UHGV virus genome: UHGV-0059448
DNA length: 29,315 bases
Source: a virus
Reading direction: 5' to 3' (one strand)
Shown: positions 310-26,951 of the stretch, in pieces
Numbering within the stretch: the first letter of the stretch is position 1
Layout of the letters: each line of letters starts with the position of its first letter
Position numbers and translations under genes: made by a program
Notes under the pieces: generated by a model
Seen by the model: the letters and a program-made list of their open reading frames with translations, nothing else
The model's database searches: none
Told to the model about the DNA's origin: nothing

Positions 310-1578
310 TCAGCTCGGGCTACTGTCAGCACCACCACCTTGTTGTGCGGCTTTCAGTTTCTGGTTGAACACCGAACTTTCTGGCATTTCGAGACGCAGG
401 TCTATCCATCGCCCGGCGGGAATATCCATCGGCTCACCTGCGACGATCATAGCGGTTTCACTGTCAAAGCGACGTTTAAAAACCGACACGATAATGGTTC
501 CGCCCTGAGTGGATTGCGTCTCCACAAAACACAGGGGGTTGCCATTTGAATCCTGTGGGATTTCAATAGTCCAGCCGTCAGCGTGTAGCCCGACAGCGCC
601 ACGTATTTCATATACGCCAGTAGCAATTTTTTCCGCTGTAACGCCTTCCGCCTCCATATTGGTCGCGGCACAGCCAGAAAGTGAAAAATCTTCGAGAAAA
701 CCAGCAGGCATGCCTCTGTGATCATTGGTAAGTCGCACAACAGGTGAGGCTTTTTTTATAAACCCGTTTGCATCAACAGTGGTTGTCAGATTGTCCAGCA
801 ACAGACGGGTTGTTGAAACCCCCGCAGTGCCGTATCCGGACATTACACGGATGCCCCTGGCAAAATAATGCACGCTCATGAGAAACCACGTATCGTTTGC
901 TCCCACCCATAATGTGGGCGCACTTTGTGGAATTTCATAGAATTCACCCGTCATTGGCAATATGTTCTGTAGGGTTGCAAGACTGAATCCCCTCATTTTT
1001 GCCACGACGTTATCAATCACAGATTCACTGGTCGAATTATATTCGGATACAGGAAATCCTTTTTTCAAACCAAGCCCTTCACGTGCGCTGGCCTGGGTAG
1101 TACCGCCAGTACCGCCCTGCTTTACAGACAATGCTGTGGTCAGCCCTTCCAGACTGGTGATGTCTTTATTTACCCCTTTTTTTGCCATGCTGCCAATGGA
1201 GGGGATGCTCATGCTTACACCGTTGATGGTGACCGTGATCATCTGGTTGGCTGTAGTGCTGGCGAACGCCTCCCATGCCCCAATGTTCTCATCGTACTCG
1301 TTAATGAGCTGGGAAATGCTCTGAGCCAGCCCGTCAACCGAGATATTGTCTGATACCAGAATGCCGTACTTCTTGCCGCTCAGCGCCGGTGATGCAGCAG
1401 GCGTTACCGTCATTGACGTGGCGCTATTCACGGATGAAATCTGAAACAGCTGCACCGGGTTAGACATCACGATAATCGTCTGGCCAGCGCGGACCTGGCT
1501 GGCGGGAGCTGTCCAGTTTGTGCCGGAGCCGGTTGCGGTATTTCCGTTAATAGAGATAGTTCCGGTGCTATAAATCAT
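310..1578 (-). CDS. tail fiber protein (side tail fiber-like)
   Basis: 422-aa ORF, ATG at 1578 with AGGAG 5 nt upstream; Gly/Thr/Ser-rich N-terminus (MIYSTGTISINGNTATGSG...) typical of lambdoid tail fiber proteins; position distal to J as for lambda stf. Confidence 0.7.
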   Translation of the reverse strand: MIYSTGTISINGNTATGSGTNWTAPASQVRAGQTIIVMSNPVQLFQISSVNSATSMTVTPAASPALSGKKYGILVSDNISVDGLAQSISQLINEYDENIGAWEAFASTTANQMITVTINGVSMSIPSIGSMAKKGVNKDITSLEGLTTALSVKQGGTGGTTQASAREGLGLKKGFPVSEYNSTSESVIDNVVAKMRGFSLATLQNILPMTGEFYEIPQSAPTLWVGANDTWFLMSVHYFARGIRVMSGYGTAGVSTTRLLLDNLTTTVDANGFIKKASPVVRLTNDHRGMPAGFLEDFSLSGCAATNMEAEGVTAEKIATGVYEIRGAVGLHADGWTIEIPQDSNGNPLCFVETQSTQGGTIIVSVFKRRFDSETAMIVAGEPMDIPAGRWIDLRLEMPESSVFNQKLKAAQQGGGADSSPS

Positions 1579-2083: not shown

Positions 2084-2317
2084 ATGAAACTCGCTCTAAT
2101 TATGCTGCCATTATGTCTGTCCCTCACTGCATGTGGTAATGGTTTAAATACCGGTAAACCAAATTCCGGTGTCATTCCAAAACCTTTGGATCGAGATGGT
2201 AACGGTTCTTTAATTTATGATACCGAAAACCTTCCAATGACGGGGCAGTGGTGTCACGAGATTGATCACGAATACCGACGAATCGGTAGCCCTTCTAACT
2301 GTGTTATAGACTACTAA
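2084..2317 (+). CDS. small lipoprotein (77 aa), divergently transcribed moron; possible Cor-like superinfection exclusion protein
   Basis: ATG at 2084 with AAAGGAG SD 5 nt upstream; signal peptide MKLALIMLPLCLSLTAC with lipobox LTAC; opposite strand to all flanking tail genes; AT-rich surroundings; hairpin terminator directly after stop. Confidence 0.7.
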   Translation: MKLALIMLPLCLSLTACGNGLNTGKPNSGVIPKPLDRDGNGSLIYDTENLPMTGQWCHEIDHEYRRIGSPSNCVIDY

Positions 2318-2320
2318 ATA

Positions 2321-2350
2321 TTAACCCCTCAAAAGAGGGGTTAATATTTT
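2321..2350. terminator. bidirectional rho-independent terminator between lipoprotein gene and J
   Basis: Perfect 10-bp inverted repeat TTAACCCCTC-AAAA-GAGGGGTTAA followed by TATTTT on the plus strand and by a T-rich run on the minus strand; sits between the convergent stops of the lipoprotein gene (2317) and J (2349). Confidence 0.7.
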
Positions 2351-5300: not shown

Positions 5301-6143
5301 ATTATCCGTCCACGCCCACTTAAACGCCCCTGTCCATGTGCCGCTGTAGGTGCGGGTCTCCGGGTCATACGTATCCGGCACGCGGATAACGCGCCCGCGC
5401 GGTTCACAGGAAATTTGCGGGATGGAGCCGTTAAACTGGCTTGAGTCGAATTCGATGTACAGCAGCGCGGTATTTGGATAACGCAGTTTGGCGTCAATAA
5501 CCTCTGTGTAGCTCTGCAGCGTCATCGTGTCGCCAATTTTCGCGCTGTTGGCATCCGCCGTAAGCTTACGCAGGCGCACCGTCCATGTACTGCCTGCCTG
5601 CGGTAAGTCGATACGGTGGCTGCGTTCGTAGCCTGACGTGGTTTTCCCGGTGACGCTGGTATTAAGCACGGTCTGCCAGGTACCGCCATCTGTCTGCAGA
5701 TCGATAGCGTAATTAATCGAATAGCCGACCAGATCGCCGTCGTCCTCCTGTTTAAACAGTGATGGCCATTTGAGGCGCAGACGAATGGCTGACAGCTGGG
5801 TGTTGGTAAAGGTATGCGTCCAGGCCGTAGCGCTTGACACTTCGGTGCCCACGCTGATTTCATTTTCTGTGCCGGGGATACCCTGAATATATTTTTGTGC
5901 CTGAGTCCCCGGACGAAATTCCCACGCCACGCCACTGAAGTTTTGCGATCCGTCTGCATTCTCCAGTGGCGTGCCATCGAGATAGATATCCTTCGCCGTC
6001 AACTGCCCTGCAAATTCGCCCTCTCCCAGTGCAACAAGAATTTTGGCTTTCGCTACGGACTGGAGATCGTCTGGTTGTTCAGTCGGGGTGCGTGAACTGG
6101 AGCTGCCGCCCTTGCGGCCTCTAATCGGAGTAGATGTAGCCAT
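2349..6143 (-). CDS. J: tail tip host specificity protein J
   Basis: 1264-aa ORF, ATG at 6143; blocks such as YPNTAL, YCDQPVPDG, GTEPR recalled from lambda J; last gene of tail operon after I. Confidence 0.95.
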   Translation of the reverse strand: MATSTPIRGRKGGSSSSRTPTEQPDDLQSVAKAKILVALGEGEFAGQLTAKDIYLDGTPLENADGSQNFSGVAWEFRPGTQAQKYIQGIPGTENEISVGTEVSSATAWTHTFTNTQLSAIRLRLKWPSLFKQEDDGDLVGYSINYAIDLQTDGGTWQTVLNTSVTGKTTSGYERSHRIDLPQAGSTWTVRLRKLTADANSAKIGDTMTLQSYTEVIDAKLRYPNTALLYIEFDSSQFNGSIPQISCEPRGRVIRVPDTYDPETRTYSGTWTGAFKWAWTDNPAWIFYDLVVSDRFGLGNRLTAANIDKWTLYQVAQYCDQPVPDGKGGSGTEPRYTCNVYVQERNDAYTVLRDFAAIFRGMTYWGGDQIVALADMPRDVDYSYTRANVVNGRFTYSGSTTKTRYTTALVSWSDPGNAYADAMEPVFEQDLVARFGTNQLEMTAIGCTRQSEANRKGRWGILTNNKDRIVSFDVGLDGKIPQPGYIIAVADELLSGKVMGGRISAVNGRVITLDRDSPAAPGSRLMVNLPSGASQSRTIQSVNGRAVTVTTAYSETPAVESVWIVESEELYAQQYRVISVTDNNDGTYSIAGALHDPDKYARIDTGAIIDQRPISVIPPGNQSPPANIAISSFSVVQQNISVETMRVSWDQAKNAIAYEAQWRRNDGNWVNVPRTSTTSFDVPGIYAGRYLVRVRAINAAEISSGWGYSEEKTLTGKVGNPPKPVGFIASENVVFGIELNWGFQANTDDTLKTEIQYSLTGTEDDAMLLADVPYPQRKYQQMGLKAGQIFWYRAQLVDRSGNESGYTEWVRGQASIDVSDITDVILEEIKDSDTFKDLIENAVDSNEKIAGMADEIKNHADELEQQAKDILENADGLAQAEVKIDEISVSMDGMTGGVKNSSIAVIQNSLAQVTSRRSQTATNNGNVAKIDRIDTTIADTSQAVARALVTLDASAGGNVSNATDLTETLADFTQASATKINSLTVTVNGQTAAINQTAQAVADVNGNLNAMYNIKVGVAANGQYYAAGMGIGVQNTPGGMQSQVIFLADRFAVTTAAGNSVALPFVIQNGQTFIRASFIQDGTIENAKIGNYIQSNNYAAGSAGWKLNKAGDAEFNNVTVRGVVYASGGSFTGEIQATSGKFKGTVEAQSFIGDIANMHTGTNVSRSSDGLLEKVITYTDSSSSGHARHVCVIANVKGNGAGLININGNESGSSVQDMERLIMHSAVVTGPNVTVRIKVSAQNNSGASISSPTIIVSHGSGSFTG

Positions 6144-6154
6144 ATTGCGCCCAT

Positions 6155-6178
6155 AAAAAAGGCCACCCGAAGGTGGCT
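6155..6178 (-). terminator. terminator-like hairpin in the I-J intergenic region
   Basis: Minus-strand RNA forms GCCACC-UUCG-GGUGGC (UUCG tetraloop) followed by C plus UUUUUU, ending 12 nt upstream of the J start codon. Confidence 0.4.
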
Positions 6179-6196
6179 TGTAAAAAGGTTTGTTAA

Positions 6197-6784
6197 CTAC
6201 TGCTGATCTTCGACATAAATTCCGGCAGAAATAATTGCCCCGCCGATTCTCCGGCGGCCGTACAGGAGCGGAACCGGGTAACCCTGTGCGGCGGTATTTG
6301 TGACTCCGCCGAACGCGTATGAGGCGCGGTTATCTGAGCTCTGTTTGCTGGCCAGCCCTGTAGCCTGAGGGGATATCATCTGAACTACCCCCCCCAGCGT
6401 TATGGACGCACCAGCAGCAAACATCATATTGCTGGCAGCTATACTCAGACCTGGCATCCAGATCGATGCAATCACTAATACTGCGCCCAGGATAGTTTGA
6501 ATCAAACCGGCTTTTTTACTCCCGATGATTACCGGGACAATGCGGATAACATCGCCGGTAACCGGGAAACCGAGGTCATCCACACCGATGTTTTTTTTAC
6601 CCTTAAATACGGAGTATGTGAGCCCACGGCGCTGGCTGGAAATCATAAACTGCTCAAAGCCCGGAATAGTCTTTGCTAGCGCCACTCCCGCCTCGCTTAC
6701 ACGGGAAATCAGGCGGTGGTGAATTTTACCGAATGTTTTCCCGAGCACGCCGCCAAGCTCAATCCGGGTCATTACTTCCTGCAT
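6197..6784 (-). CDS. I: tail assembly protein I
   Basis: 195-aa ORF with ATG at 6784 (alternative ATG at 6772 overlapping K stop); hydrophobic Gly/Ala-rich middle and C-terminal LLYGRRRIGG resemble lambda I; position between K and J. Confidence 0.9.
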   Translation of the reverse strand: MQEVMTRIELGGVLGKTFGKIHHRLISRVSEAGVALAKTIPGFEQFMISSQRRGLTYSVFKGKKNIGVDDLGFPVTGDVIRIVPVIIGSKKAGLIQTILGAVLVIASIWMPGLSIAASNMMFAAGASITLGGVVQMISPQATGLASKQSSDNRASYAFGGVTNTAAQGYPVPLLYGRRRIGGAIISAGIYVEDQQ

Positions 6785-7503
6785 GTTTCACCTGCCATTA
6801 CATCTTTATAACGAACGATTTTCATCGTGCGCTCCTGCCAGTATCCGCCATAAGGAACACGTTGACTCAGATGCCCATAAAGATGGTGCAGCAGCATGTT
6901 ACCCTCCAGTAAAATCCCGGCATGATTCCACTTATCGGCCTGCACCTGCATGATGACGAGGTCTCCTTCCTGAGGCGGGCCATCAAACTCCCTGAATCCG
7001 CACTCGTACCAGCACTCCTGATAGAAATTGTCCGGGTAGTCGTTTTCCCACCAGGGATAATCTACCCGGTAATCGTGGAGCTCGATACCGTGGGTCTGCC
7101 GGAAATAGCTCATTACCAGACCCCAGCAATCGAAGTGGCCAAGCACGAACGGGCGCTCCAGCAGCGGCAGTTCCCCGCGCGGCTGAATAGTGCGTAAATC
7201 CCCCTCCGGCCAGCTCACAATATGCCAGGGCAGCAGCGTTGCATCACACTGCGCCTTATCCAGCTCGCTGGCCTGCGTCGTCGCATCAGGATGGCTGTGA
7301 ACAATGGCCACCACCGTCCCCCAGTCTTCTGCCGCTGCGTAATCTTCGGGGGACAGGTGAAAATGTTCAGTCGGCTCTGCTGCGAGATTACGACAGGGAA
7401 AATAGCGCTCAACCCGGCTTTTCTGTGCCACCACGCCGCAGCACTCTCGCGGATATTCCGCTGCAGCGTGTGCCATGATGGCATCAATGGTTTTCTGACG
7501 CAT
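6772..7503 (-). CDS. K: tail assembly protein K (JAB/MPN plus NlpC/P60-like)
   Basis: ORF-track start 7542 is a TTG; ATG at 7503 (MRQKTIDAIMAHA...) matches the recalled lambda K N-terminus and sits 1 nt after the L stop; HSHP metal motif present. Confidence 0.9.
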   Translation of the reverse strand: MRQKTIDAIMAHAAAEYPRECCGVVAQKSRVERYFPCRNLAAEPTEHFHLSPEDYAAAEDWGTVVAIVHSHPDATTQASELDKAQCDATLLPWHIVSWPEGDLRTIQPRGELPLLERPFVLGHFDCWGLVMSYFRQTHGIELHDYRVDYPWWENDYPDNFYQECWYECGFREFDGPPQEGDLVIMQVQADKWNHAGILLEGNMLLHHLYGHLSQRVPYGGYWQERTMKIVRYKDVMAGETCRK

Positions 7504-7504
7504 A

Positions 7505-8260
7505 TCAGCTCCTGATAAGAGATGTACCGGGGAAACCGCCAAACGGCAGCTCGTTGCTGTCTCCGTGCCGGAGCTTGCAGGCCGTCAGCGTGCCGTTGCA
7601 GACATCCAGCGATGGATCGTCAACCGGATTATTGTTTTTGTCGAAATAGCGCGTTCCGGCATAGTCGCAGCCGTCGCCGGTCCGGTACTTGTTCCGGATG
7701 CACCAGCTGCATAACGAATGCAGCTGCCGCGTGGGTATCATCTGGCCCTGTAAATCCATCGGACTGGAAAGCGTAAATTCAACAGATTCATCCGTCTCGG
7801 TGCTTCTGGCATCGATATAAAAGACCTTCAGCTTTTCCTGTGACGGGTCTGCAGTGGGATTGCCCTGCGGAAAATTTCTGGCGTCCAGATACTGTGCCAG
7901 CGTGTCGTGGATACTCACTTTCGCCTGCAGCAGATCGTCATACGCCAGACAGAGCGCTGAGATCGAGCTGTCCAGGTTCGCCACACTCAGTTTTGGCTGT
8001 GGACTGGTACCGTCCGTAGTCGCTTCAATACCCTCAACCTGACACGGCCAGGCTTTATACTCCTCCCCCTGCCACCAGATGGACTTCGCCGGAAGTTTAT
8101 TCTCATCCCCGCCTGCAGCCTCAATCTCTTCCGGGGTATGCGCGATATTATGTGCGTGGAAGCGGAGTACATCTGACATACCGAACGCTGTGCCATCGAC
8201 AGAAAAAAGCCGGACTTCATTGCCCGGCTCGAGTTTTTGATAATCAGCATTAAGACTCAT
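7505..8260 (-). CDS. L: minor tail protein L
   Basis: 251-aa ORF, ATG at 8260 overlapping M stop (ATGA); Cys-rich C-terminus as in lambda L; position between M and K. Confidence 0.95.
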   Translation of the reverse strand: MSLNADYQKLEPGNEVRLFSVDGTAFGMSDVLRFHAHNIAHTPEEIEAAGGDENKLPAKSIWWQGEEYKAWPCQVEGIEATTDGTSPQPKLSVANLDSSISALCLAYDDLLQAKVSIHDTLAQYLDARNFPQGNPTADPSQEKLKVFYIDARSTETDESVEFTLSSPMDLQGQMIPTRQLHSLCSWCIRNKYRTGDGCDYAGTRYFDKNNNPVDDPSLDVCNGTLTACKLRHGDSNELPFGGFPGTSLIRS

Positions 8261-11855: not shown

Positions 11856-11891
11856 AATTACTCCGGGGGAACGGGGCTCGCGCCCCGGTTA

Positions 11892-14394: not shown

Positions 14395-14439
14395 GGGAAA
14401 TACTCCAGAAAGGTGGCCCGACAGGGCCACTGGGGGAAG

Positions 14440-15465
14440 TTATGCCAGTTTGACGGAGACGAATGCGTCAGGGTCTGGCAGCAGCATCAGCGGAGCTGAC
14501 TGAATCATGGTGAATTCGCGCGCCGGATCCCCCGACTGCACCCAGTTTTTCGGGTAGCGTGTCGAGGCATTGATACCTTCGCGCTGGGCATCAGCATCAA
14601 GAATGCAGCCATAGGTACGCAGGCCACGAGCCTGGGTATTCCCCAGCACCATTGTCAGGTCCGGCAGATAATTCTTTTTGACGTCGTTTTCGACGTACTG
14701 GCCGGAGTACACCACGATGGCCACATCGCCAAACATCCCCTTGTATGAAACAGCCATACCCAGGTCTTTCACGGCAGTTTCCAGCTCAGAGTTAGAACCA
14801 CGACGCGTATCCAGCTTCTTCTCAACAGCCTTGAAGGAACGGAACAGCGCCCAGCCTTTCGGATCGAACACAATGATGTTGACCACACCGCTGGCGTTGA
14901 GCGCGTAGGCTTCAATGTCATCGGTCGGGTCATACGTTTCTTTGTCGCGGGTTGACCATGCAGCCGCACCGGCCTGGACAATGTTGTTACCAGCGCTGCG
15001 GCCCATATCGACTTCAACAGGCTCGAACGCTTCCCCGGTCATGGTGTATTTACCGCTGAGCACCGCCGAAACAGCCTGTTTCTCTTCGACCTGAGCAATC
15101 GCCAGCTCTTCATCCTTCATGTTCTGAAGGATAATGCGGCGACGGCGATAGACCGGGTCAGCGAGATTCTGCGGATCCTCATCCGGCAGGCGGCGGAGAG
15201 TCATCAGTGGGTTAACTTCGTGTTTCGGCTTCACATAACCCGGCGTGAATTCAGAAGTGCTGCCGCCCCGGGAGCGGATCACTTTGCCGGAGACAATCGG
15301 CGAGACGTAAAGCGCCATATTGACCAGGCCAGGAATTTGCGACAGGTAAACCTTCTCTGTACTGAAGGGATAGGTTTCGCGGAAAAAGATACGCAGGAAA
15401 AGCGGATCGAATTTGAGTTTCTTCTCATTGACCGCCAGCAGTTGGGCAGTGGTGTAAACGGACAT
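14440..15465 (-). CDS. E: major capsid protein E
   Basis: 341-aa ORF nearly collinear with lambda E as recalled (MS.YTTAQLLA...KFDPLFLR...YLSQIPGLVNMALYVSPIVSG...). Confidence 0.97.
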   Translation of the reverse strand: MSVYTTAQLLAVNEKKLKFDPLFLRIFFRETYPFSTEKVYLSQIPGLVNMALYVSPIVSGKVIRSRGGSTSEFTPGYVKPKHEVNPLMTLRRLPDEDPQNLADPVYRRRRIILQNMKDEELAIAQVEEKQAVSAVLSGKYTMTGEAFEPVEVDMGRSAGNNIVQAGAAAWSTRDKETYDPTDDIEAYALNASGVVNIIVFDPKGWALFRSFKAVEKKLDTRRGSNSELETAVKDLGMAVSYKGMFGDVAIVVYSGQYVENDVKKNYLPDLTMVLGNTQARGLRTYGCILDADAQREGINASTRYPKNWVQSGDPAREFTMIQSAPLMLLPDPDAFVSVKLA

Positions 15466-15478
15466 AGATTTTTCCCGT

Positions 15479-15503
15479 AAAAAAAGCCGCGCAAGCGGCT
15501 TTT
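15479..15503 (-). terminator. intrinsic terminator-like hairpin between D and E
   Basis: Minus-strand RNA AGCCGC-UUGC-GCGGCU followed by UUUUUUU; lies 30 nt after the D stop and about 15 nt before the E start. Confidence 0.55.
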
Positions 15504-15532
15504 ATGAATGATGATGGTTGTAGAAATGCGGA

Positions 15533-16282: not shown

Positions 16283-17212
16283 GCTTCCTCCTCGGGAAAT
16301 CATCGTTCGTTTGTTAATTGCATCGCGCATAACGTTCAGCGCATCCATGTTGTTGACCAGCTGCTCCGCCAGGCCGTTGTCAACTGATTCCTGGCCTGAA
16401 AAAACAGCTGCTTCAGTATCAAGAACGGCCTGAACCGACATGCCGGTATAACCCGCCACCTTTTCAGCGAACATCTGCCGGGTAGCGTCGATACGCGCCT
16501 GAAAATCTGCGCGTACCTCTTTGGGTAATTTCTCGTAGGGGTTCCCGTCCACCTTGTGATCGCCGCTGTAAATCAGCGTGACCTCAACGCCGCTGGTTTT
16601 AAGGGCGGCGCCGTAATTGCTGTGGGCCATCATGACCCCGATGGATCCCGTTCTGGCCGTCTGGGTCACAAGCCGACGTGATGCCGCACTGGCAATCAGC
16701 TGGCCAGCGCTGCAGTTCATATCGTTGGCTAACGCCCAGATGGGTTTGATATCCCGCATGCGGGCGATGATGTCCGCACAGTCAAAGGCACCCGCCACCA
16801 TTCCACCTGGCGTATCCATATCCAGAAGAATGCCGTCTACACCCGGATCGCTGATTGCCTGCTGGAGGCGGGCGATGATGCCGTTGTACCCCGTCATCCC
16901 CGAATACGGCTGGAGTGAGCGGGTTTTACTGACCAGCGTCCCGGAAACAGGCAGCACCGCGATACCATCAGTAACCTGGTAGCTTCGCGCTGGTTTTGGG
17001 CCCATGTCCTCATCATCACCAAAGAGAGCCAGCGGTTCAGCCATCTGCTCTGCACCTAGCGTCACGCCCGACACGGTGTCGGTCAGACGGGTGATACCTA
17101 ACTGACCAGCGAGAGCACAAAAGAAAACCCGCGCATAGGCGGGTTCAAGTAAAAGCGGCTCATTGAAGGCCATACTGGCAATGTGCGGGAGATTACGCAG
17201 CTCTGGCGTCAT
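15875..17212 (-). CDS. C: prohead protease C (ClpP/S49-like)
   Basis: ATG at 17212 ([19 protein letters not shown]...) with GAGGAGGGG SD, preferred over the upstream ATG at 17227; DMDTPGGMVAGAFD motif; overlaps the 3' end of B. Confidence 0.95.
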   Translation of the reverse strand: MTPELRNLPHIASMAFNEPLLLEPAYARVFFCALAGQLGITRLTDTVSGVTLGAEQMAEPLALFGDDEDMGPKPARSYQVTDGIAVLPVSGTLVSKTRSLQPYSGMTGYNGIIARLQQAISDPGVDGILLDMDTPGGMVAGAFDCADIIARMRDIKPIWALANDMNCSAGQLIASAASRRLVTQTARTGSIGVMMAHSNYGAALKTSGVEVTLIYSGDHKVDGNPYEKLPKEVRADFQARIDATRQMFAEKVAGYTGMSVQAVLDTEAAVFSGQESVDNGLAEQLVNNMDALNVMRDAINKRTMISRGGSMKGTTASADTTQPAASADQTVTTVDVPAAVVTDPAAGATVDISSQVAAAVAAENGRIMGILNCEEAKGRESQARALAETPGMTVESAQRILAAAPLSAQARTDTALDRLMETAPGTITAGSASAEAGDDLLNTPV

Positions 17213-22517: not shown

Positions 22518-22545
22518 ATAAAAAAGCCCCGCATAGGCGAGGCTG
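22518..22545 (-). terminator. rho-independent terminator after the peptidase gene
   Basis: Minus-strand RNA AGCCUCGC-CUAU-GCGGGGCU followed by UUUUUUAU, about 20 nt after the stop of the 22563..23465 gene. Confidence 0.6.
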
Positions 22546-25807: not shown

Positions 25808-25835
25808 AAAAAAAAGCCTGCTCGGACGAACAGGC
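25808..25835 (-). terminator. rho-independent terminator, candidate tR' of the late leader transcript
   Basis: Minus-strand RNA GCCUGUUC-GUCC-GAGCAGGC followed by UUUUUUUU; about 140 nt downstream of the candidate late promoter. Confidence 0.6.
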
Positions 25836-26144: not shown

Positions 26145-26172
26145 TAAAAAAGCCCCGGCGGATTGCCGAGGC
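26145..26172 (-). terminator. rho-independent terminator about 90 nt after the stop of the putative Q gene
   Basis: Minus-strand RNA GCCUCGGC-AAUCC-GCCGGGGC followed by UUUUUUAU. Confidence 0.55.
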
Positions 26173-26261
26173 TAATTTTACAAACTGGTATATGACTATC
26201 ATCTTCATGCCGCCACTTAAAGTTAAGGCAGCATATCAAAGTAGACTCAAATATGACGTAT

Positions 26262-26951
26262 TTAATTGACTTTTGCAAGACCCTGCTGCGAAAAAGTCGC
26301 TTTTTGTTGTGATCGTGTTCTCACAGCACAGAGAAGAGAGTCGCTATCAAGCCGCTTAAAAATGGCGCACATAGCCCGCCAGTAATCAGCGTAGTTATGG
26401 CACCAGTTATCAGGCTTAACGCCACACAGGGCTGCAAGGTCCTGGTGCTGATATACATACTTACCCGCCAGCTCTGCTTTCACGTCCTGTGCCGCCAGCC
26501 ATATCAGTTTCTTCAGCCGCTCCATCGTCTTGCCGGCCACTTTCTTAGCGCCGAGTTGATCACGGAATTCTTCCCATGCCCACTGTGTTATCGCTACTTG
26601 ATACTCAAAGCGGATATTGTCGCTGTAGTTCCACAGCAACCAGGATTTCTGGTGGTCTTCCAGCGACAGGAGGGCGCGGCGCCAGCTGGCTGTCGAGTAT
26701 TCAACGGGCAGAACGAGAGCGATTGAGGAACCCTTAGCGCGGGACTGGCTGCCGCTCATCGGCGGTCCATCCGGGTTAACCATTTTTTGCTTCACCTCGC
26801 TATACACCTTCTTCCGGCCACGGCTGCGCGCCGTAGCGGTAAATTGCGCGTTCTCTGCAAAAGCTACCAGTTGCCCTTTCGTCGCACCACTCAGATCGGC
26901 GGTGGCCACTATCAGCTGCTGGCGAACAAATTCCAAGTATTGAGCTGTCAT
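26262..26951 (-). CDS. putative late-gene antiterminator (Q-like by position; family not verified)
   Basis: 229-aa ORF, ATG at 26951 overlapping the stop of the preceding small ORF (ATGA); last gene before the late promoter/terminator region and lysis genes; sequence does not resemble lambda Q as recalled. Confidence 0.5.
   Translation of the reverse strand: MTAQYLEFVRQQLIVATADLSGATKGQLVAFAENAQFTATARSRGRKKVYSEVKQKMVNPDGPPMSGSQSRAKGSSIALVLPVEYSTASWRRALLSLEDHQKSWLLWNYSDNIRFEYQVAITQWAWEEFRDQLGAKKVAGKTMERLKKLIWLAAQDVKAELAGKYVYQHQDLAALCGVKPDNWCHNYADYWRAMCAIFKRLDSDSLLCAVRTRSQQKATFSQQGLAKVN

Follow-up and report, generated by a model that had tools for sequence, protein, structure and literature searches.

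A conserved terminator-like hairpin at the junction of the tail genes I and J in a lambdoid phage genome

The tail genes I and J of the virus genome UHGV-0059448, whose 29,315 nucleotides were analysed as a whole and are referred to as the window, are separated by a short GC-rich hairpin followed by a run of uridines. Compensatory substitutions in homologous loci from many genera show that it is the pairing of its arms that persists and not the sequence of the stem. On balance we favour the view that the element acts as an intrinsic terminator belonging to the I-J junction and as such would stop RNA polymerase not modified by Q before J and would be read through by Q-modified polymerase in lytic growth. 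The hairpin is already known in kind and by homology, as a putative terminator is recorded in the database entries of N15, HK97, HK75 and HK225. The present analysis adds its compensatory maintenance across genera and its presence at empty and occupied sites alike (77 of 78 loci), as well as the cargo carried by about a quarter of the junctions, always upstream of the hairpin, and look-alike cassettes at the K-I junction and before the capsid gene.

Architecture of the junction and its genomic context

The hairpin is encoded on the minus strand, which a direct reading of the sequence identifies as the coding strand of this region. On this strand the junction reads 5'-AAGCCACC UUCG GGUGGC C UUUUUU AU GGGCGCAAU AUG-3' and, together with its surroundings (6215-6130), ...CAGCAG UAG UUAACAAACCUUUUUACAA GCCACC UUCG GGUGGC C UUUUUU AUGGGCGCAAU AUG GCU... 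(Table 1). This confirms the initial annotation in its description of a GCCACC/GGUGGC stem with a UUCG loop and a U6 tract 12 nt before the start of J, between I and J; the strand, the annotated status of the element in related phages and the nature of the junction as a hot spot of moron insertion had been omitted there. The stem is built of five G-C pairs and one A-U pair and lies 19 nt downstream of the stop codon of the I-like ORF (6199-6197), co-oriented with I and J. Between the last U and the start codon of J (6143-6141) there are 11 nt (6154-6144), the U-tract thus ending at position -12. With a length of 53 nt, the I-J gap is one of the few true intergenic gaps in the late operon. The isolated hairpin folds with -11.6 kcal/mol (z = -3.5; 1 of 200 shuffles is as good) and is retained in both the minimum free energy and the centroid fold of its 86-nt context. 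At the position where most relatives have the first U of a U7 run the window carries a C, which probably makes its copy a somewhat weaker terminator than the family consensus.

Table 1. Positions of the junction elements, the flanking genes and further features of the window.
Feature	Position	Strand	Details
Hairpin	6162..6177	minus	5' arm GCCACC 6177-6172; loop UUCG 6171-6168; 3' arm GGUGGC 6167-6162
U-tract	6155..6161	minus	unpaired C 6161, then U6 6160-6155
J leader AUGGGCGCAAU	6144..6154	minus	SD-like GGG 6152-6150, i.e. positions -9 to -7
Spacer UUAACAAACCUUUUUACAA, 19 nt, I stop to hairpin	6178..6196	minus	empty in the window; insertion place in relatives
Tail assembly protein I homologue, 195 aa	6197..6784	minus	phrog_32, E 1.9e-73
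Central tail fibre / host specificity protein J homologue, 1264 aa	2349..6143	minus	phrog_31 and phrog_2589, E 0
Q-like late-gene antiterminator	26262..26951	minus	phrog_304 'anti-termination protein Q-like', E 1.9e-97
Strong terminator-like sites just downstream of the Q gene	26173-26151, 25835-25816	minus	two sites
Hairpin core in the D-E gap	15499-15486		before the major capsid gene
Hairpin after E (major capsid gene)	14430-14413		without U-run
Hairpin after V (major tail gene)	11887-11872		GCGA loop; without U-run

A terminator scan of the window lists the I-J hairpin as a terminator-like site, and from the scan rate about 0.03 such sites are estimated to be expected in a 53-nt gap on the minus strand. 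By itself, such a pattern proves little, as 19 sites were counted in 20 kb compared to 20.7 ± 4.4 in shuffled sequences, i.e. no excess over chance. The reality of the hairpin is instead deduced from its conservation and from compensatory substitutions in homologous loci.

Upstream of the I-J junction and on the same strand follow the NinB/RusA region, the Q-like gene, the endolysin and an Rz-like spanin; the terminase, head and tail genes come after the lysis genes, head and terminase being placed via matches to the annotated records of mEp237, HK225 and N15. This gene order, together with the terminator-like sites behind the Q gene, is the layout of a Q-antiterminated lambdoid late operon. 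In lambda, Q is required for the whole late transcript (PMC10695390). The window is ca. 90% identical to the structural modules of mEp237 and HK225 and 87% identical to that of N15, and the first 200 residues of its J are 100% identical to those of Escherichia phage Phi06_2987 S.

Several further identities of the element were considered and discarded. A bidirectional terminator is contradicted by the plus-strand tail after the hairpin, UUGUAAAAAGG, which is A-rich and not U-rich. Likewise, a dispersed REP-like repeat was rejected, since a search for GCCACCN4GGUGGC with up to two mismatches found two sites compared to 1.9 expected, the other site being at chance level. In the region 5500-7000, searched with a permissive E-value, no Rfam family reached its gathering threshold; MicA (19.3 bits compared to 41, E = 5), the only match overlapping the hairpin, and a miRNA match are regarded as noise. 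The arrangement of U-rich spacer, hairpin and U6 run also bears a generic resemblance to an Hfq module, with nothing further in support of an Hfq-binding 3'UTR sRNA.

Homologous hairpins in other phages

A megablast search with the junction returned 39 phage records. In N15 (GenBank AF064539) a stem_loop at 15307-15330, between gene 20 and gene 21 (the homologues of I and J, respectively), is annotated as 'putative rho-indep. transcription terminator'. It occupies the orthologous position, shares the stem GCCACC/GGUGGC and the leader UAUGGGCGCAAUAUG with the window and is embedded in DNA of ca. 84% identity, but has the loop UCCG and an uninterrupted U7 run instead of UUCG and a C followed by U6. 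Corresponding annotations exist for HK225 ('rho-independent terminator', 15508-15532, at I-J), HK97 ('terminator, putative', 15107-15129, just before J, with the loop UUUG) and HK75 (terminator, 14460-14483, at I-J). Common to these four phages and the window are the stem GCCACC/GGUGGC, a T6-7 run and the leader ATGG(G/A)CGC(A/G)ATATG, while the loops vary between UCCG, UCAG, UUUG and UUCG. HK022 contains GCCACC-UUCG-GGUGGC-U7 after the morons gp22/gp23, with stem and loop identical to those of the window, and the leader before J in HK97 and HK022 is the same as the window's. In contrast to the window with its 19-nt spacer, however, the interval from I to the hairpin is filled in HK97 and HK022 by ca. 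0.5-0.7 kb of moron DNA with one gene in forward and one in reverse orientation. Compared to these two phages, the terminator of the window is an 'orphan' without a moron in the gap.

Lambda carries the hairpin AACCGCC-UGCG-GGCGGUU (-15.1 kcal/mol) at ca. 15463-15482 of NC_001416, followed by UUGUCAUUU and J; no feature is annotated at this place in the record. As in the window, the stop codon is followed by a spacer, a GC hairpin whose loop has 4 nt, a U-rich tail, the ribosome binding site and the J start codon, and the stem ACCGCC/GGCGGU differs by two compensatory changes (G-C to A-U and A-U to G-C). Unlike in the window, the U-tract is interrupted (UUUUGUCAUUU) and the leader is longer, with a Shine-Dalgarno (SD) sequence of the GGAG/GAGG type; the J proteins are ca. 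31% identical over the first 200 residues.

In the N15 record, putative terminators are noted not only for I-J but also for D-E, E-FI and V-G and for two later junctions. The elements at D-E, E-FI and V-G resemble the I-J hairpin of the window in presenting the anatomy of an intrinsic terminator inside an antiterminated operon, but differ in their stems and junctions. Lambda tR' is a terminator which is bypassed by Q-modified polymerase and lies at a different place from I-J. No experimental study of the I-J junction emerged from a search of the full-text literature, be it on mutants, on termination or on the 3' ends of transcripts; Tree et al. 2014 (PMC4104026) deals with the moron site at PR' and not with I-J.

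Outside this group, a tblastn search with the N-terminus of J hit 1716 phage records, from which eight were sampled for their I-J junction. JK06 and Salmonella phage 36 (virulent, T1-like) and Klebsiella phage Roth85 (virulent, Webervirus), whose J proteins are ca. 44-46% identical to that of the window, have a GC hairpin with a U-run in common. In JK06 it reads AACCCGC-CUAGU-GCGGGUU plus U5-6 and is succeeded by the spacer AUUUAGUGUAGA (11 nt after U5, the first A excluded), the start codon being located 16 nt after the hairpin; in Salmonella phage 36 and Roth85 the U-run is followed by a spacer of 50-60 nt able to hold a promoter. We know of no Q-type antiterminator in these phages. As JK06 places a compact hairpin directly before the essential J, the hairpin cannot everywhere be an efficient, unbypassed terminator. 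Pseudomonas phage CF53a carries ACCGCC-AAGA-GGCGGU-U6, and the lambdoid Stx2 phage 1717 has a terminator-like hairpin within a gap of 259 nt. In Sloth (Dhillonvirus), the Burkholderia phage phi1026b (Stanholtvirus) and Mannheimia phage 587AP2, I and J overlap or abut and the hairpin is missing. The I-J hairpin is hence widespread but not obligatory.

Maintenance of base pairing across genera

Two sets of homologous junctions were compiled. The first resulted from scanning IMG/VR for the J leader, which yielded at least 120 DNA stretches and, combined with the phage loci, at least 124 matches with 82 distinct hairpin-plus-leader sequences. In their alignment 96.5% of the cells of the six-pair helix are paired, and double changes occur in five of the six pairs (52 cells). 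The covariation score amounts to 0.399, compared to 0.108 ± 0.013 in shuffled alignments (0 of 500 as high), and does not exceed 0.114 when, as a control, the 3' partner is slid by 1-3 columns.

Because this set had been selected by the leader, a second one was collected solely with the first 200 residues of J as query, taking one genome per species. It comprised 80 prophage loci, 78 of them analysable, from Enterobacter, Klebsiella, Citrobacter, Kluyvera, Salmonella, Erwinia, Pantoea, Rahnella, Serratia, Brenneria, Pectobacterium, Symbiopectobacterium and one Pseudomonas, and also included a Shewanella locus. In 75 of the 78 loci, a stem of at least 5 bp is followed by a T-rich stretch whose end lies 15-22 nt (16-17 in most) upstream of the J start codon, and two further loci contain the same hairpin with one mismatch (77 of 78 in total); the Shewanella locus is the sole one of the 78 without it. 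Among the 72 distinct junctions of this set, the 5-bp stem core takes 16 forms and the loop 31. The tetraloop UUCG, found in 21 junctions, is common but not conserved. Of 71 distinct homologous junctions, 60 have a T-run of 7 nt, the range being 5-8. A covariance model built from the first alignment recovers the element in the protein-selected loci; in the model-fitted alignment, which includes these loci and leans towards the structure, 97.5% of the cells are paired, all six pairs show compensatory changes (95 cells) and the covariation score reaches 0.463 compared to 0.122 in shuffles. The terminator-like character noted in the initial annotation is thereby strongly backed by conservation and covariation, in addition to the terminator annotations of N15, HK97, HK75 and HK225.

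When the protein-selected junctions are anchored at the start codon, the hairpin arms vary in a compensated fashion, and the block U7-AU-GGG (-18 to -7) emerges as the best conserved part of the junction with major-allele frequencies of 0.92-1.00 (74 loci). This range holds for the U-run (-18 to -12), and AUGGG at -11 to -7 attains 0.92-0.96 (74 loci). Divergent loci contain GAGG, GGAG or AAGGA in place of GGG. In loci with changed leaders and canonical SD sequences (L196, L198, L203 and L204) the U-run keeps its place next to the hairpin and is separated from the SD, as exemplified by GCGGGC-U7-CGCCUG-AAGGA in L203. The coupling of the U-run to the hairpin rather than to the SD points to a terminator and not to a purely translational U-rich enhancer.

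The out-of-frame AUG at -11 is unlikely to serve as the start of an upstream ORF; it is frequent in the I-J cassettes, but is missing from divergent I-J leaders, and related cassettes at other junctions (see below) have ACGGG (D-E) or AUUGGAG, AAUGGAG or UUGGAG (K-I). Hence it is the G-rich, SD-like triplet and not the AUG that is conserved.

Insertion of accessory genes upstream of the hairpin

The distance between the I stop and the J start codon falls into two classes: among the pattern-selected matches listed (115 loci) it spans 48-66 nt in 86 loci and 317-1408 nt in 29, and extra DNA of 316-1033 nt occurs in 21 of the 75 protein-selected loci with a locatable I stop. About a quarter of the junctions thus carry 0.3-1.4 kb of unrelated accessory (moron) DNA, which is without exception placed after the I stop and before the hairpin. 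In the inserts of 53 loci, ORFs of at least 15 families unrelated to one another lie in both orientations. Nearly all of them lack a Pfam match or a PHROG of named function; the hits obtained were UPF0257 for one ORF, a weak aspartyl-protease match for another and PHROGs without a named function. A moron is reportedly defined (Juhala et al., 2000) as an accessory cassette that lies within the late operon of a phage and is transcribed independently. The HK225 insert is annotated as a hypothetical protein and gp22/gp23 of HK97 and HK022 are annotated as moron products (AF069529, AF069308).

The window hairpin occupies the exact place of the terminator that closes the inserts of HK97, HK022 and HK225. 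In its own gap of 53 nt there is no ORF and thus no moron gene, and a consensus scan detected no sigma-70-like site in or near 6144-6260 of the minus strand. As both an inserted gene and a promoter-like site are absent, a role as moron terminator is not exercised in the window. A promoter for J inside the gap was also rejected, for there is no consensus match and no room between the U-run and the start codon.

The I-J gap and, in relatives, the K-I junction are places in which to seek cargo genes. For phage engineering, the stretch between the I stop and the hairpin offers a naturally tolerated payload site with a built-in putative terminator.

Related cassettes at other junctions

The covariance model also detected a cassette of hairpin, U7 and short leader directly before gene I in at least 28 protein-selected loci. 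These K-I cassettes come after inserted DNA that separates K from I, such as a 74-residue membrane ORF in L136; in the window K and I overlap, and no hairpin cassette is present there. A weaker match of the model is found in the D-E gap of the window, where AAAAGCCGC-UUGC-GCGGCUUUU-UUU-ACGGGAAAAAUCU-AUG precedes the major capsid gene. The D-E and I-J elements of the window share a U7-AYGGG leader, and lambda exhibits the same arrangement before its major capsid gene. The hairpins after E and V in the window are devoid of a U-run (Table 1).

Based on this distribution, we tentatively raise the possibility, to which we attach a rather low probability, that hairpin-U7-AU-GGG-N5-8-AUG constitutes a reusable junction cassette of temperate and virulent J-bearing siphoviruses. 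Such a cassette might combine a terminator with a re-initiation site and might mark, or perhaps even create, insertion places, its conserved flanks acting as recombination targets. This proposal fits with the near-universal occurrence at I-J even when the gap is empty, the occurrence at K-I only together with inserts, the presence at D-E, and the conservation of the U7-AUGGG block at the nucleotide level across genera.

Proposed function and alternatives

The sequence features of a rho-independent terminator are all present: a GC stem, a stable fold, a U-tract on the transcribed strand that is set off from the stem by a single C, a position downstream of a stop codon and a conserved structure. 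The assignment as a terminator is based on this anatomy, the strand, the conserved pairing with its abutting U-run, the inserts located always upstream and the presence of a Q gene. We propose the following scenario. RNA polymerase not modified by Q, originating from moron promoters, spurious promoters in the tail genes or read-through in the lysogen, would terminate at the hairpin, which would leave J and its downstream genes silent in the prophage. An accessory gene placed into the I-J gap would find a terminator already in place. In lytic growth, polymerase that arrives from the late promoter in its Q-modified form would ignore the hairpin, and J would be translated from its own weak ribosome binding site, which starts 2 nt after the U-run. 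For annotation, the hairpin might accordingly be taken to mark a putative boundary of transcription units inside the prophage tail operon. Against a terminator speak the arrangement in JK06, the C at the first U position of the window's copy, the want of an inserted gene and of a promoter-like site in its gap, and the hairpins without U-run after E and V, which make RNA-level roles plausible in the same operon.

One such role, which we consider possible though improbable, is that of a barrier to RNA decay. The hairpin would then block 3'-to-5' exonucleases proceeding from cleavages in the J message and protect the upstream tail message, or would cap the 5' end of a processed J message, termination being incidental. 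The U-less intercistronic GC hairpins after E and V of the same operon are in line with this idea, as are the stem-loops which N15 annotates at its E-FI and V-G junctions and the retention of the hairpin directly before the essential J in JK06. A barrier, however, needs no U-run, yet T5-8 abuts the stem in essentially every homologue and belongs to the best conserved block; moreover, the upstream genes G to I are needed in low amounts, which leaves no obvious need for stabilizing their message. It should be added that the message protected by a 3' hairpin would be the upstream one and not, as contemplated in the initial annotation, that of J.

A module for translation initiation appears rather unlikely. 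Here, the hairpin would keep the J ribosome binding site free from upstream structure and the U-run would serve as an S1/standby site that offsets the weak GGG SD, the likeness to a terminator being secondary. The fixed distance of 15-22 nt between hairpin and start codon, the outstanding conservation of U7-AU-GGG and the cassette before gene I wherever an insert uncouples I from K would be compatible with this function, and hairpin-U7-ACGGG-N-AUG also precedes E, the most highly expressed late gene, in the window and lambda. On the other hand, the U-run stays with the hairpin and apart from a strong canonical SD in L203 as well as in L196, L198 and L204, Roth85 and Salmonella phage 36 keep hairpin and U-run 50-60 nt away from the ribosome binding site, and genome compaction explains the tight spacing equally well.

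Attenuation by a partial terminator, the leading idea of the initial annotation, implies that some of the late transcripts stop at the hairpin in lytic growth and that the dose of J is thereby lowered relative to the upstream genes. In lambda, only few copies of J are needed per virion, which would suit such a mechanism, and the layout of JK06 requires leaky termination if this phage is without an antiterminator. We nevertheless regard attenuation as very doubtful, because a Q-like antiterminator is encoded in the operon and an element of this kind also stands before the major capsid gene, for which the need of expression is highest. Furthermore, M, L, K and I just upstream are low-copy genes too, so that a step-down at this point would lack an obvious logic, and, according to the title of Sampson et al. 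1988, it is translation initiation that sets how strongly the late genes of lambda are expressed relative to each other. Finally, a chance palindrome without function, which would accord with terminator-like patterns being no commoner in the window than in shuffles, is refuted by covariation, as 77 of 78 loci found independently have the hairpin in this position, with differing stems and preserved pairing.

A near-universal terminator before J, encountered even in the virulent T1-like phages, poses a small puzzle, as the polymerase transcribing this region is supposed to ignore it, although specialists will hardly be surprised by this.

Terminator-type elements and hairpins of the window

The terminator-type design of the hairpin between the tail genes I and J recurs on the same strand in the D-E gap (Table), in the order AAAAGCCGC-UUGC-GCGGCUUUU-UUU-ACGGGAAAAAUCU-AUG. 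Judged from its sequence, this cassette is a second terminator-type element built like that of the I-J junction. The D-E gap of lambda is arranged in the same way, and the N15 record gives its counterpart (5980-6004) as a putative terminator. In the window, the consensus terminator scan did not pick up the D-E cassette because part of its U-run is taken up by A-U pairs.

The hairpins following the major capsid and major tail genes both lack a U-run and are each succeeded by a GGAG ribosome binding site. Stem-loops are also annotated at both junctions in N15. The two hairpins of the window may serve as RNA stabilisers of the two most abundant structural messages. Two further hairpins, terminator-like and strong, are embedded in coding sequence. 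Downstream of the Q-like late antiterminator gene, the succession of a promoter-like site and a terminator is similar to the PR'-tR' order. Two further strong terminators are predicted on the late strand (Table); of the three stems, two open with AGCCUCG, and UUUUUAUGC comes after those two.

The perfect palindrome AAAUAUUAACCCCUC-UUUU-GAGGGGUUAAUAUUU, situated between the J stop codon and a reverse-oriented lipoprotein gene, is probably a terminator common to these two convergent genes. The lipoprotein gene itself looks like a moron, an accessory gene inserted in a phage late operon, of the Cor/lipoprotein kind.

Junctions with inserted DNA in relatives

Inserted DNA is present between K and I in many relatives (at least 28 loci of the set L126-L205, drawn by similarity of the J protein, L136 among them), where it closes with a cassette of the hairpin-U7-AUGGG type directly before the I start codon, at a distance of about 650-700 nt from the J start on its upstream side. 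This makes the K-I junction a second hot spot for cargo. In the window K and I overlap, and no such cassette is found there.

At the I-J junction, many insert-bearing loci from distant genera share a near-palindrome, CCTGATATT(T/C)(G/A)A(T/A)CAG, 5-25 nt upstream of the hairpin. It lies upstream of a reverse-oriented moron gene (HK97 gp23, HK022 'srb') and may thus constitute the promoter or operator of that gene. In the Stx2-converting phage 1717, the I-J gap contains a terminator-like hairpin followed by a four-fold tandem repeat, which precedes the J start.

Table. Positions of the features in the window and in related loci
Feature	Sequence	Position	Strand	Remarks
D-E terminator-type cassette	window	15479-15503	-	precedes major capsid gene
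GUGGCCC-UGUC-GGGCCAC hairpin	window	14413-14430	-	GC-rich, intercistronic, directly 3' of major capsid gene
CGGGGC-GCGA-GCCCCG hairpin	window	11872-11887	-	GC-rich, intercistronic, directly 3' of major tail gene
Hairpin, 9 bp + U-run	window	8207-8230	-	just past M/L boundary
Hairpin, 8 bp + U-run	window	17125-17146	-	just past portal/next-gene boundary
Promoter-like site, at once 9-bp terminator	window	26151-26202	-	just downstream of Q-like gene
Strong predicted terminator	window	25816-25835	-	late strand
Strong predicted terminator	window	22525-22544	-	late strand
Lipoprotein gene, 77 aa	window	2084-2317	+	phrog_12984, E 1e-56; just downstream of J
15-bp palindrome	window	about 2320-2345		
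K-I insert	L136	553-829		74-aa membrane ORF, phrog_5031
Near-palindrome	HK97 (L003)	about 1140-1160		
Near-palindrome	HK022 (L208)	about 535-555		
Near-palindrome	L137, L141, L143, L144, L148, L173-L176, L178, L180, L189, L190, L193, L204			
(CAGACAU)x4	phage 1717 (L214)	last about 45 nt before J GTG		I-J gap
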